A stretch of DNA of 64,000 bases, taken from positions 800,001 to 864,000 of the forward strand of contig CAWABA010000006.1 in the NCBI GenBank assembly GCA_963780185.1. The letters are read 5' to 3'. Below, in pieces: positions 12,270-64,000 of the stretch. Within the stretch, counting starts at the first letter, position 1. Each line of letters starts with the position of its first letter. Made by a program: the position numbers and the translations under genes. The DNA comes from Candidatus Bathyarchaeota archaeon. GTDB taxonomy: Archaea > Thermoproteota > Bathyarchaeia > Bathyarchaeales > Bathycorpusculaceae. The notes below the pieces were generated by a model. It searched no databases and was not told where the DNA came from. It saw only the letters and a program-made list of their open reading frames with translations.

Positions 12270-13466
12270 TTATTCGTGGTTATTGGAGTCTTCTGTTTCT
12301 GCTGCGGCTTCGTTTGCGTCTGTTTCTTGTGTCGTCTCCGGTTGCGCCGCTTGGGGCGCTTCTAAAGGGTGGGCTGGAACTTGTACCTCCTCCAGTATAA
12401 CCGGCTCGATGACGGCTTGCATTTCGGGCTCCATCACTTTATCAAGCGTTGTTTCAATTGGGGCAACTTCCGACGCAACCTCAAACGCGTCAATCGCCGC
12501 TTCAACCTCAGGCTCCTTGGCCGCCTCAACCTCAACAGCAACTTCAGATGCTGCAACCTCAACGGCTGCTTCCTCAACAACTGGCGCTGCTTCAATCGGG
12601 GCTGCTGCTTCCAAGTTAATGACTGGCTCTTCGGGGGCAAGAACGGTTATCGCTGGCTCTTCAGGGGCAACTTCAGGCTCAACAATGGTAATCGGAGCGG
12701 CTTCTGCGATAGCAACCTCAACAACAGGGGTCTCAACCGGCGCAGCTTCTACTGCAGCTTCAACGGGGGCAACTTCGACAACGGGAGCGGTTTCCACGGG
12801 AGTTTCAATGGGGGCGGCTTCGATCGGGGCAACGGTTTCAGCGGGCGCTGCTTCTATCGGGGCGGCTTCAACTGGGGCTGCTTCGGCTTTTGCCGCTTCA
12901 ACTGCAATCTCAACTGGAGCAGACTCAACGATGGTAGCTTCAATGGGCGCTGGCTCTGCAACGGCTTCAATTGTTGGAGCTTCAACAATGATGGGGGCGG
13001 GGGCTGGTTCTTCGATTGCGGGCGGAGCAACTTCCACAATTGCGGGGGCAACTGGCTCTGGGGCTGCGGGCATCGTTGGAGATGAAAGCTGATTTGTAAC
13101 CTGTTTTATCGTGGTTAACTCGTTCTTGGTTGTTTCTAATCCGGTTGACAGAAGGCTTATTTCTCTTTGGTAGATGTCTTCGTCAATTTCTCCGGCTACA
13201 TGCTGAATCTCATAGCTGGCGAGAAGAGTTTCCAAAGTTTTAAGCTGATTCTCCAAATCCTGAGTTTTCGACTGCATTCCTGCAACGAGTTCTTTTTGCT
13301 GCTTCTCAATGGCAACGATGGCCGCGCTGATCTCTATGTTAAAAGAGTCTCTGGTCGACTGTGAAATTCTGCCGCTTGAATAAAGATTGTCTAATGCTTG
13401 CTGCTTTTTCTTAGCAATTTCGTATTCTTCATTTAACCTTTTAAATGTATATTTCCATGAAATCAA
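12270..13466 (-). CDS. CdvA-like coiled-coil protein with a long acidic Ala/Glu/Pro-rich tail
   Basis: ISWKYTFKRLNEEYEIAKKKQQALDNL...GRISQST...GEIDEDIY coiled coil recalled from CdvA-like proteins; TTG at 13466 is the likely start (ORF track 13526). Confidence 0.75.
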   Translation of the reverse strand: MISWKYTFKRLNEEYEIAKKKQQALDNLYSSGRISQSTRDSFNIEISAAIVAIEKQQKELVAGMQSKTQDLENQLKTLETLLASYEIQHVAGEIDEDIYQREISLLSTGLETTKNELTTIKQVTNQLSSPTMPAAPEPVAPAIVEVAPPAIEEPAPAPIIVEAPTIEAVAEPAPIEATIVESAPVEIAVEAAKAEAAPVEAAPIEAAPAETVAPIEAAPIETPVETAPVVEVAPVEAAVEAAPVETPVVEVAIAEAAPITIVEPEVAPEEPAITVLAPEEPVINLEAAAPIEAAPVVEEAAVEVAASEVAVEVEAAKEPEVEAAIDAFEVASEVAPIETTLDKVMEPEMQAVIEPVILEEVQVPAHPLEAPQAAQPETTQETDANEAAAETEDSNNHE

Positions 13467-13766
13467 TTCTAAGGCACCGAACACTTTTAACGCAAAACAA
13501 CAAATAACGTTTCTTAACATGCACATATATCGGTAACTATTAAAATCAGCACTTCAGCCAGCGAAATAGAAACTTTGCAGTAAAATTCCGCACTGCCCAT
13601 ACATGGTTATGCATTGGAAAAGCAAAATATTTTCTGGCACCTTTCCAAGAAATTGACATTTACATGTTAATTGTGACAACTGCCACACCGCGTTATGCAC
13701 GATATATGATCCAGAATCGAAGCTGGGGCAGTGGATGTTGAATAATCGATTTCACCCATGTTGAGG

Positions 13767-61893: not shown

Positions 61894-61977
61894 GTGTGAT
61901 AAAGCGTTTTTTGGTGAATAATAGCTTTTCCTGAAAAAAACAAATTAAACTTCAAAGCAAAAAGTGGAGAGGAAGAG

Positions 61978-62272
61978 TTAGTAATCTTCCATTTGATAGA
62001 GACCCAAGTCGATGTTGAGGGTTTTTTCGGCTTCGTGCGCTCCTTCCAAATCATAGAGGCACTCGTGTAGCTTTGTCCAGCCTGCTGGTTCTTTTCGGAG
62101 CCATCTTCGACTTAGCCATCCCAACCTTCATTTTGCTCTTGTGTTTGGGACCCATGTGTGGACCGCTTATGACCATGGAGTTGTCGATCATTTTTGGGAC
62201 AACCTCAACTTTAACGTCTTCAATGTTCAGCGGGTTCTTGAGGGCTTCGTCGTGTAAGGGGTGTTTAGTCAA
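61978..62272 (-). CDS. ~97-aa protein ending in an FtsZ-like C-terminal peptide; one extra base
   Basis: TTG at 62272 overlaps the RHH stop, GGAGG upstream; span is 3n+1; removing one A near 62093 gives ...APKEPAGWTKLHECLYDLEGAHEAEKTLNIDLGLYQMEDY. Confidence 0.6.
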
Positions 62273-62420
62273 CGCCCTTTCGCCTCCAAACTTCAGCGCT
62301 GATTAAGTCTCGAATTGCGACCCTGATGGCTTCGGCGCGGTTAGGATAGAACCGCTCGTCAACCAGCTGGTCCAAAGCTTTTATATAGGTTTCAGGCAGA
62401 TACAGAGTAATTAGTTTCAT
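62265..62420 (-). CDS. Ribbon-helix-helix regulator, CdrS-like (51 aa, absent from the ORF track)
   Basis: MKLITLYLPETYIKALDQLVDERFYPNRAEAIRVAIRDLISAEVWRRKGVD; YPNRAEAIR matches the CdrS-type RHH signature as recalled. Confidence 0.9.
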   Translation of the reverse strand: MKLITLYLPETYIKALDQLVDERFYPNRAEAIRVAIRDLISAEVWRRKGVD

Positions 62421-62633
62421 TAGTTTATCTCTTCCAATTTGTGATTAAACAACAGAGGGAGGGTCGCAACCTATACATGTATATAATATGCCTGAAATAT
62501 GCCTATAACATGTTGATGCCACAGCATATAAGCGTTAAACAGGCATTGGTGCAGCTTTCTGTCAATTTCCATTCAGCAACCTTTAAGTTTTTATCCCTTG
62601 CTGAAATATCTAACATGCTGGTGTACATGGTTA

Positions 62634-64000
62634 TTGCGGGTTTTCCTTAAAAACTTCGGCTGCTCAGCAAACACAGCTGACGGCGAAGTCTTGGCAGGAT
62701 GCTTATCACAAGCTGGCTACCAACTCACCACTTCAGAAACCGAAGCAAACGTGCTAATCTACAACACCTGCGCAGTGAAGGGACCAACAGAAAACCGCAT
62801 CATAAACGCCATGAAACAAGCGCCAAAAGGCAAAAAACTCATCGTCGCAGGCTGCCTGCCCATGATTAGTTTTGAGCGGCTGCTTCGGGAAGTGCGCTTT
62901 GACGGCGCAGTCGGTCCCTCGGTCGGGGAAGGAATTGTGGATGTTGTTTCCGGGTTGCCGCAGGGGAAAGAGTTATCGATTTAGGCAATTTGAACGGGAA
63001 GCCGAAACTGGACCTTCCCAAAGTCAGGTCTAACCCTGTTGTAAGCGTGGTTCCGATAAATTATGGTTGCCTTGGCTCCTGCGCTTACTGCTGCGTTGTC
63101 CATGCGAGAGGGCATCTGCGAAGCTACAGCGTCAAAGAAGTTGTTGACCGAGTAAGAAGCGACCTTGCAGACGGCGCCAAGGAGTTTTGGGTTACTTCGC
63201 AGGATACCGCCTGTTACGGGAGAGATTTGCACAGTAACCTTGCGGAGCTGCTTGAGGCGTTGGATGGGTTGGCGGGTGATTTTCGGGTGCGGGTCGGCAT
63301 GATGACTCCGAACATGGTAACCGACATGCAGGATCGAGCTAATTGAGCGCTTTCAAAAGCGACAAGGTCTTCAAGTTTCTGCATTTGCCTGTGCAAAGCG
63401 GCGACGACGAGACGTTGAAGCGGATGCGCAGGTTTTACACAGCAGCAGAATTCAAGGCAATTGTCGACGCGTTTAGAGCGACAGTTTCCCGATTTAACGC
63501 TTGCCACCGACGTCATCGTAGGGTTCCCAGGGGAAACAGAGGAGGCTTTTGAGAACACCCTCAGCCTGCTGGAGGAAGTTAAGCCTGACGTGACCAATGT
63601 TTCCAAGTTTTTCGCCAGACCAAAAACCGCGGCTGCCCAAATCCAAGATGGACTTGGTTGAAAAAGAAGAGATTAAGCGCAGAAGCGCAGTGGCGGCGGA
63701 GTTGGCTAGGCGGATTTCTTTGGAGCGGAATAAGCGTTGGGTCGGCTGGGTTGGGGAAGTGCTGGTTGATGAAAAGGGCAAGGTTGATGGGTCATGGGTG
63801 GGACGCAACTTTGCTTACAAACCAGTCGCAGTAAAAAGCACGGAGAATTTGCTTGGCAAAACAGTCAAAGTAAAAGTTGAAGCCGCCGCTGGAACCTACC
63901 TCAAAGGAACGATCTCTGAAGGGATTGAGCAAAATAACAATGAATTTACATTTTTGTGGCAAGATCAAGAGTCTACTAGACATGGGTGTGTACTGCGGGT
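62634..64000 (+). CDS. tRNA t6A37 methylthiotransferase (MiaB-like, archaeal e-MtaB); about four frameshifts; homology ends near 63915
   Basis: FGCSAN, NTCAVK, AGCLP, GCLGSCAYC radical SAM motif, HLPVQSG, TDVIVGFPGET, C-terminal TRAM. Confidence 0.9.

Follow-up and report, generated by a model that had tools for sequence, protein, structure and literature searches.

The present analysis concerns a stretch of 64,000 nucleotides from the genome of a Candidatus Bathyarchaeota archaeon of the family Bathycorpusculaceae, order Bathyarchaeales (G000:C6:800001-864000, in the following called the window), whereby the source genome G000 is 93% complete and comprises 13 contigs. Within the window a two-gene unit was identified in which a cdrS-like ribbon-helix-helix (RHH) gene is followed by a small gene, here called mini-ftsZ2. 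Judged by alignment, this mini gene is an ftsZ gene with in-frame loss of approximately residues 13-283 of its 371-amino-acid parent, so that the GTPase domain is missing entirely, together with the first half of the C-terminal domain. With good though not full confidence, the mini gene is interpreted as a selected, filament-less FtsZ2 remnant which still serves SepF in a lineage equipped with the Cdv division machinery.

The assignment of the mini-protein to the FtsZ family follows from profile and pairwise comparisons. Many FtsZ proteins of the order end like the mini-protein (e.g., ...APTLYDLDQYSGPEKPLNIDLGLYQLENF), and the resemblance of its tail to the C-terminus of bathyarchaeal FtsZ, which the original prediction had put forward, was borne out by hhalign, which placed columns 24-96 of the mini-protein onto columns 298-371 of the FtsZ profile (probability 97.7, E 1.8e-12). 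Likewise, blastp against the closest full-length FtsZ (locus L047) aligned residues ~13-96 of the mini-protein with FtsZ residues 284-371, yielding 62 bits for the copy of the closed genome G003 and 84.7 bits for that of locus L046 (the corresponding E-values refer to a 20-sequence database). As the mini N-terminus (LTKH.HDEALK) also resembles that of FtsZ (LTKMRTAEHALKY), the retained parts amount to FtsZ residues ~1-12 plus 284-371, i.e., the last 88 residues, and the earlier statement that solely the FtsZ tail is kept holds for the tail itself but underestimates what has survived. Neither of the two pieces into which mini-ftsZ2 is split in the window matches any Pfam or NCBIfam family, a tubulin signature is absent, and the intact mini copy of G003 likewise gave no match including Tubulin, so the original statement that tubulin signature and GTPase domain are lacking stands. 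The FtsZ GTPase domain with its glycine-rich GGGTG[ST]G motif and its T1, T3 and T7 loops is not present in the mini-protein, given that no Tubulin match was obtained and residues 13-283 are missing by alignment; PF12327 covers residues 238-331 of the full-length parent, the mini part starts at residue 284 and has no PF12327 match. In terms of the FtsZ fold, the remnant presumably corresponds to helix H10 and strands S9-S10, which have become basic and are predicted to be disordered, followed by the linker and the tail. The charge of the mini-protein changes along its length from acidic at the start through basic in the middle (10 K/R in 35 residues, isoelectric point 11.3) to acidic in the tail, which holds two L-Y-x-[LM]-E motifs around N-I-D.

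As assembled, both genes of the unit reside on the minus strand. The RHH gene (62265..62420) is the first gene of the unit, starts with ATG and encodes 51 amino acids beginning with MKLITLYLPETYIKALDQLV... The 5' part of mini-ftsZ2 (62062..62272) starts with a TTG (62272-62270) inside the RHH stop region and belongs to an open reading frame (ORF; 62272..62051) of 73 amino acids which ends at the TGA at 62053-62051. The 3' part (61978..62061) is read in the other frame (62124..61978, ending ...LYDLEGAHEAEKTLNIDLGLYQMEDY) and contributes CLYDLEGAHEAEKTLNIDLGLYQMEDY followed by the stop codon at 61980-61978, i.e., the FtsZ2 C-terminal tail and putative SepF-binding peptide. The ORF listing of the window contains the RHH ORF plus both mini-ftsZ2 pieces. 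The TTG ORF overlaps the RHH stop by 8 nucleotides (GCG-TTG-ACT-AA), a Shine-Dalgarno-like GGAGG is found 10 nucleotides 5' of the TTG, and 26 of 28 mini loci share the GCG-TTG-ACT-A arrangement (L059 and L068 deviate). Judged from the overlap of TTG and stop, mini-ftsZ2 thus looks translationally coupled to the RHH gene. The motif of the tail occurs in G000 at this locus only, as a regular-expression search of all six frames returned no second copy.

The identity of the preceding gene provides the link to the FtsZ2-type paralogue. The RHH protein matches Pfam RHH_1 (PF01402) at 1.5e-7 over residues 4-40, and its best NCBIfam family is CdrS (NF058555; 4.1e-11), whereby the 42.7 bits obtained remain under the 100-bit cut-off of a model that was built on Halobacteria. 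With one genome per genus being searched, 59 of 60 other family genomes yielded an orthologue, and in all 20 ftsZ loci fetched from the order the RHH gene is located directly 5' of ftsZ. Among 30 family RHH loci fetched, 19 are followed by an FtsZ of ~371 amino acids (one of them cut by a contig end, one partly masked) and the other 11 by a mini gene, which supports the earlier proposal that the ftsZ slot may hold a GTPase-less derivative. On its other side the RHH gene is flanked by a radical-SAM MiaB-like gene (UPF0004 plus radical SAM) in 67 of 69 loci. The mini gene hence shares descent with the FtsZ family (PF00091 plus PF12327, TIGR00065), documented by linker and tail homology and by the same slot as defined by the RHH and the MiaB-like gene. 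A further FtsZ of greater divergence (125-131 bits), patchy in its occurrence, adjoins ribosomal protein L22 and ends ...LGLIRFHR without the tail. According to Pende et al. 2021 (PMC8178401), ftsZ1 is mostly found beside translation genes and ftsZ2 often beside 'parD', an RHH gene. The adjacency of the reduced gene to the RHH gene and of the other paralogue to L22 therefore point to an FtsZ2-type parent, and we infer by synteny that the reduced gene is the cdrS-linked FtsZ2-type paralogue. The FtsZ1-type paralogue (L090-L092; G003:C1:710366-710860), situated beside ribosomal genes and without the LYDLE...LYQME tail, was seen in 7 of 61 family genomes and its retention is patchy even within one genus. 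A second RHH paralogue (G000:C1:206806-207012, minus strand), ~46-55% identical to the cdrS-like protein, occurs once in nearly every family genome; inspected by eye, its surroundings in G000 contain no obvious division gene.

The mini gene is widespread. When the 73-amino-acid piece was used as query, matches were obtained in 28 of 36 other genomes of the genus and in none of 24 genomes from eleven other families of the order. A family profile recovered the gene in seven of the eight genus genomes missed before, the exception being G035 (82% complete), and the total thus amounts to 35 of 36, among them the single-contig genomes G003 and G014. This recurrence in many independent assemblies goes well beyond chance and excludes a misassembled deletion, which had been raised as a possible artefact. 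In 19 relatives' loci the mini gene is one open frame of 104-132 codons from stop to stop, or 95-98 amino acids from the conserved TTG, with the proteins ending ...HLYDLEDAHGPEKPLNIDLGLYQMEDY. The 11 family mini loci encode 93-114 amino acids and derive from genera g1 (twice), g65, g57, g54, g89, g27, g87, g55, g76 and g28. Within the order, 60 of 81 genomes exceed the Pfam Tubulin cut-off, hence most of the order possesses a normal ftsZ. Public data contributed 382 protein clusters (90% identity) of 52-168 amino acids at E <= 0.001, whereby the named ones are all 'hypothetical' except for one evident misnomer and two NCBI names read 'Candidatus Bathyarchaeia'. A profile search of 1.84 billion representatives returned 170 matches at E <= 0.001, and among the best 150 of these, 130 are shorter than 125 amino acids, 11 are of FtsZ size (325-380 amino acids) and three are of tetratricopeptide repeat (TPR) type. 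The latter, the multi-repeat proteins P0180, P0209 and P0258, were considered as homologues and treated as chance matches given their TPR-type repeats.

The deletion of the tubulin fold occurred independently, at least twice. A tree of the neighbouring MiaB-like gene was built from 43 loci, comprising 8 ftsZ loci, 6 of 19 other genus loci and 29 of the family's RHH loci (of the 30, the window's own locus L043 was left out); L056 dropped out since its match was shorter than 300 amino acids, which gave 42 rows. Here, eight genera with 14 mini rows group together in a single clade (Shimodaira-Hasegawa-like approximate likelihood ratio test, SH-aLRT, 86), nested in a clade with a support of 97 whose other members, G130 and G145, have full-length FtsZ2. 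The mini rows L059 and L068 were placed elsewhere, in an unresolved part of the tree. Three changes from the full to the mini state are needed on this tree, two of which are forced by supported branches. The breakpoints of L059 moreover differ (FtsZ 1-75 plus 331-369), and metagenomic proteins with still other joins were found (P0202, ~38|259; P0240, ~40|236; P0222, ~10|271); it is the differing breakpoints together with the tree that document independent deletions. Full-length relatives may also have lost their catalytic function. The nucleotide-binding motifs are intact in 18 of 20 full-length FtsZ proteins, that of L069 is mildly altered, and in G160 (L049, C8) a full-length cdrS-linked FtsZ2 carries destroyed T1, T3 and T4 motifs (GVNKAGNN, ADLSGKTEADVAR). 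Low Tubulin scores were obtained for G114 (58.9 bits, C3:465-938) and G157 (36 bits, C124). The FtsZ2 proteins of G160, G114 and G157 are hence candidate pseudo-GTPases, with a normal C-terminal domain and the tail retained. Intact, motif-dead and deleted forms of FtsZ2 thus coexist in the family, and the tail is present in all of them.

The remnant appears to be maintained. For 19 genus copies the ratio of nonsynonymous to synonymous substitution (dN/dS; method of Nei and Gojobori, NG86) was 0.17 for the whole gene, 0.21 for its middle and 0.07 for the 26-codon tail, and L71, E75, D87, Y91, Q92, M93 and E94 are invariant tail columns among 46 sequences of eight genera. Purifying selection on the mini gene is supported by these values, as is a stable rather than transient state across at least eight genera. 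The original prediction had offered two alternatives, a decoy or adaptor and a snapshot of FtsZ loss; an adaptor role is what we would assume, and the idea of a passing snapshot had to be given up in favour of a selected state.

The copy in the window requires separate consideration, as one surplus base is located between 62062 and 62066. A 199-nucleotide public contig of 94% identity omits the base at 62065, and this omission rejoins both frames at a junction like that of the relatives, in which the gene is a single frame of ~95-98 amino acids. The overlap of the 51-amino-acid RHH gene with an ORF of ~97 amino acids after correction of one base was thus correctly anticipated by the original prediction. 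The break is not the only one in its neighbourhood. The MiaB-like gene (62550-63773 of the window, plus strand) changes frame at ~62950 and ~63650, its relatives being intact and public contigs carrying an additional base at either 62949 or 62954. Beyond the window, another gene changes frame at ~C6:865.7 kb. When 28 orthologues were compared with those of the closed genome G003, only two were found to change frame, both within C6:862.9-865.7 kb and within 4 kb of the mini gene. A local patch of indel errors in the assembly is the simplest reading of the surplus base at ~62065 and is held to be rather probable. Alternatively, yet with clearly less than an even chance, the surplus base would be real, the gene of this genome truly broken and its tail untranslated, possibly following the loss of SepF. 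In line with this, SepF and its neighbouring 486-amino-acid gene were not found in G000, and frame-shifted tails exist in other database entries, of which P0198 is related and broken at a similar place. It has to be set against this that at least three further frame breaks lie within ~4 kb in unrelated, well-conserved genes while 26 of the 28 orthologues compared are intact, that public contigs of 92-94% identity have intact frames at 62065 and at 62949/62954, that the tail codons 3' of the break are unspoiled (no stop, all invariant residues present), and that SepF may simply be unassembled given the completeness and the contig number of G000.

The genome-wide inventory of division genes, which the original prediction had called for, gave a divided outcome for G000: full-length ftsZ and SepF were not found, the Cdv genes were. 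True FtsZ is represented in the genus by the tail-less FtsZ1-type paralogue, which 7 of 45 other genomes possess. Most genomes of the mini clade have no FtsZ GTPase at all, yet retain SepF and the Cdv/ESCRT genes. The remaining genus genomes and G000 gave only weak Tubulin matches (~20-28 bits) in proteins of ~900 amino acids and their neighbours, so that by Tubulin search no FtsZ GTPase was found in G000. Searches for SepF were successful in 41 of 45 other genomes of the genus and, at the level of the family, in 57 of 61 genomes, mini-bearing genera among them; the SepF core hardly differs between genera with the mini gene and those with FtsZ. In G000 a SepF was obtained neither as a Pfam match nor by tblastn with the SepF of six relatives, and of the 486-amino-acid gene next to SepF G000 possesses only a 30% paralogue. 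All 61 family genomes yielded a CdvA, in agreement with the earlier remark that the lineage also encodes CdvA-like proteins. In G000 the Cdv cluster (G000:C9:176762-180166) comprises CdvA (39.3 bits), a Vps4-like ATPase and two Snf7-like genes, the matches of which remain below the Pfam cut-off (25 and 20.8 bits). According to Pende et al. 2021 (PMC8178401), genomes that lack FtsZ also lack SepF. SepF being kept without an FtsZ GTPase contradicts this rule, and the contradiction would resolve with the mini-protein and its tail as the ligand that was retained. As a side observation, the SepF of the FtsZ-less genus (L086-L089) possesses a Pro/Glu/Lys-rich linker that is ~30-60 residues longer than in FtsZ-bearing genera (L072-L077), and this longer linker separates the amphipathic N-terminal start (MKFSLFRK) from the conserved core.

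Complex modelling of the tail with SepF, as proposed in the original prediction, yielded a predicted complex that speaks for binding. The model comprised two copies of the SepF core of G003 (residues 64-162; alignment of 10 sequences) and residues 57-96 of the mini-protein (alignment of 45 sequences). For the SepF dimer with the mini tail an interaction prediction score from aligned errors (ipSAE) of 0.86 was obtained, the best of three controls reaching 0.00; a mark of 0.86 is reached by 116 of 157 solved complexes and by 2 of 215 mismatched pairs. Between the runs >=94% of contacts coincide, and the predicted local distance difference test (pLDDT) value of the partner is >=72. In the model, FGLYQMENY pairs with strand 129-135 in the first SepF protomer and HLYDLE with that strand in the second, whereby the tail lies in the groove between SepF helix alpha2 and strand beta3. 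Based on this, the two L-Y-x-[LM]-E motifs may bridge the SepF dimer. A complex of SepF with a peptide of the FtsZ C-terminal domain has been solved for M. smithii (7AL2; Pende et al. 2021, PMC8178401), and a like position in the groove is predicted here for the acidic C-terminal peptide of the mini-protein with its x-I-D core. The relatives' SepF also has an N-terminal amphipathic start. Unlike in the M. smithii system (PMC8178401), the peptide here stands apart from any filament-forming GTPase. Contact of one tail with both SepF protomers via two LYx[LM]E motifs is predicted here, and no description of it was found in the literature.

Considering these findings, a working model can be suggested. 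Cdv would carry out division itself, and the mini gene would persist since SepF still needs its FtsZ2 ligand. One tail lying across both SepF protomers might act as a staple or adaptor, the basic middle segment could provide a second, electrostatic contact to the membrane, to nucleic acid or to another protein, and the supply of the mini-protein would be set by the CdrS promoter. A more far-reaching version, which we regard as speculative and doubtful, assumes that the pair of FtsZ2 tail and SepF was rewired and became part of the Cdv divisome, related to the endosomal sorting complex that is required for transport (ESCRT), whereby the mini-protein would staple the SepF dimer and its basic middle would couple membrane-bound SepF to the ESCRT constriction machinery or to the nucleoid. 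If this held true, the result would be a hybrid divisome with a filament-less FtsZ peptide as an obligatory, CdrS-timed subunit, and a living intermediate of the switch from FtsZ to ESCRT in TACK archaea.

Several points weigh against a remnant that serves SepF. SepF was not found in G000, G004, G011, G027, G166 and G153 (a mini-bearing genus, 95% complete), of which G004, G011, G027, G166 and G153 carry an intact mini gene; if these absences are real, the tail must serve something else. Binding of the tail to SepF is a prediction of the complex model, and as a like complex has been solved (7AL2), the pass of the model may reflect this likeness, whereby the 7AL2 chain itself is missing from the six PDB matches that the SepF profile gave at E <= 0.01. 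The archaeal FtsZ tail motif given by Pende et al. 2021 (PMC8178401) is GID; here it reads NID, and GIE, DIK or NIE in related FtsZ2, with D87 being invariant in the 46 sequences. The predicted disorder of the mini-protein alone (AlphaFold2; pLDDT 63.6, one short helix, no fold) limits structural arguments, the clade tree builds on one neighbouring gene with many of its forks being unresolved, and the dN/dS values are rough as synonymous sites are near saturation (pS, the proportion of synonymous differences, ~0.62). Lastly, at least five database representatives have frame-shifted or read-through tails (P0129, P0135, P0139, P0169 and P0198), and because of these real decay is possible in some lineages, possibly also in the one studied here. 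The SepF absences lend their weight to a tail that is kept for another partner, such as a Cdv/ESCRT component or a PRC-barrel-like protein, or to a mini-protein that acts as an antagonist blocking the SepF groove and not as an adaptor: G027 and G166 with their intact mini genes are 94% and 96% complete, Cdv is present throughout the family, and the sign of the effect of the mini-protein on SepF is not readable from its sequence. Both variants are nevertheless deemed unlikely, given the retention of SepF in most genus genomes with a nearly invariant core, the confident model that is specific versus its controls, and the report that Haloferax SepF binds FtsZ2 and not FtsZ1 (PMC8187382). Among the proteins of G000, a stand-alone PRC-barrel protein was not found at the Pfam cut-off, the best match reaching 17.5 bits.

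A functionless ftsZ2 relic with decay pending would fit the missing domain match and the predicted disorder of the mini-protein, and also the evident dispensability of the FtsZ2 GTPase in the family as exemplified by the full-length G160 protein with its destroyed motifs. Such a relic is considered highly improbable, as the low dN/dS, lowest in the tail, was obtained from 19 species near synonymous saturation, as start codon, GGAGG, length and the seven invariant tail residues are kept across at least eight genera, and as the same end state was reached repeatedly through different deletions. Even less credit, close to none, is given to a full-length ftsZ collapsed by the assembler or to an ordinary RHH antitoxin paired with a small toxin. 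While local indels do occur in this assembly and the RHH fold is generic, a gene of ~96 amino acids is present in nearly all genus genomes, two of them single-contig, and in the public clusters listed above; the RHH gene is an orthologue of the one preceding ftsZ2, and the protein encoded downstream of it shows homology to the C-terminus of FtsZ2 and none to a toxin family, as judged by Pfam and NCBIfam (PADLOC was not searched). The selected remnant serving SepF hence remains the preferred interpretation.

The unit has counterparts among known systems from which it differs in defined ways. Darnell et al. 2020 (PMC7439475) describe the cdrS-ftsZ2 locus as conserved across archaea, including Bathyarchaeota, and the halobacterial operon as a small RHH gene directly 5' of, and co-transcribed with, an FtsZ2-type paralogue. 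RHH gene and gene order are retained here; the ftsZ2 slot, however, holds a protein of ~96 amino acids without GTPase domain, and unlike haloarchaeal CdrS the RHH protein scores below the model cut-off (42.7 versus 100 bits). Work by Liao et al. 2021 is also said to be associated with the cdrS-ftsZ2 operon of Halobacteria. Nitrososphaeria (Thaumarchaeota) divide by ESCRT while encoding FtsZ and SepF, as stated by Makarova et al. 2024 (PMC10936438). The present lineage resembles them in being of TACK affiliation, in possessing a full Cdv set plus remains of FtsZ-SepF and in presumably dividing by Cdv, whereas the nitrososphaeral FtsZ homologue still is a full-length tubulin fold and here the fold is deleted with only the tail region being selected. 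Truncated FtsZ paralogues of Hyphomicrobiales, which according to Aubry et al. 2026 (PMC13732431) are under selection and were proposed to tune division, are likewise shortened FtsZ derivatives maintained by selection. They are the mirror image of the mini-protein, as they keep the GTPase domain and it keeps the tail, and they are extra copies beside an essential FtsZ whereas the mini gene usually is the sole FtsZ-derived gene. A tail-only or GTPase-less archaeal FtsZ was not found described in the literature, whereby the supplements of Pende 2021 and Darnell 2020, with their tables of Bathyarchaeota loci, may list such genomes as FtsZ-less. The clade thus keeps SepF and an FtsZ2 docking peptide under selection though the tubulin fold is deleted, which suggests that the FtsZ2 tail has a job of its own without an FtsZ filament. 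FtsZ is usually viewed as all-or-none, with a lineage either possessing the filament or having lost the gene. The Hyphomicrobiales paralogues, for their part, reportedly are without linker and tail. Three questions become testable with this system, namely the function of SepF independent of FtsZ filaments, the effect of the FtsZ C-terminal peptide alone on SepF, and the handover of division from FtsZ to Cdv/ESCRT in a lineage with two systems. There is also a lesson for annotation, as ~380 public clusters are labelled 'hypothetical' and domain-based censuses would score 'SepF without FtsZ'.

Besides the genes treated so far, the window contains a second CdvA-like gene (12270-13526, minus strand; PF18822 at 1.4e-14) which is fused to a low-complexity tail of ~270 amino acids rich in Ala, Pro, Glu and Val. 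Extended CdvA-like proteins of this kind in Bathyarchaea are mentioned by Makarova et al. 2024 (PMC10936438). The extended frame measures 350-480 amino acids in several FtsZ-less genera (G000, G013, G131, G155, G089, G120 and G079), and its counterpart ~180-290 amino acids in most FtsZ-bearing genera, hence lengthening of the CdvA-like protein is possibly correlated with the loss of FtsZ. The paralogue was considered as a new partner of the tail and set aside, the extension being of low complexity and already in print. A weak Tubulin match was found 3.4 kb before the window (G000:C6:796630-796860). Its relatives (e.g., G003:C1:1538309-1541406) consist of a protein of ~890-907 amino acids (positions 76-170, 24-28 bits) and a divergently oriented neighbour of 385-500 amino acids, also matching weakly, and the pair occurs in FtsZ-less and FtsZ-bearing genomes alike. 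This pair possibly represents the FtsZL1-type family (Makarova and Koonin 2010). In G000 the respective frame comprises only 236 amino acids, thus probably representing another frame break.

The flanks of the two-gene unit were compared as well. In the upstream region (62421..62520, minus strand), an alignment of 16 genus loci revealed a perfect palindrome, AACATGTT, at 62514-62507, ~90 nucleotides 5' of the RHH start and invariant in all 16, a TATA-like ATTATATA at 62487-62480 and a purine-rich stretch preceding the RHH ATG. The palindrome might serve as an operator in autoregulation or else belong to the promoter of the divergently transcribed MiaB-like gene, the promoter and operator roles of these elements being assigned by position and conservation only. 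On the other side (61925..61977, minus strand), the stop of the mini gene is followed by a T-rich stretch, a likely archaeal terminator, and then by GAAAAGCTATTATT, a conserved element that by its appearance would be the promoter of the next gene, which encodes a DNA alkylation repair protein (61893-61183, minus strand).

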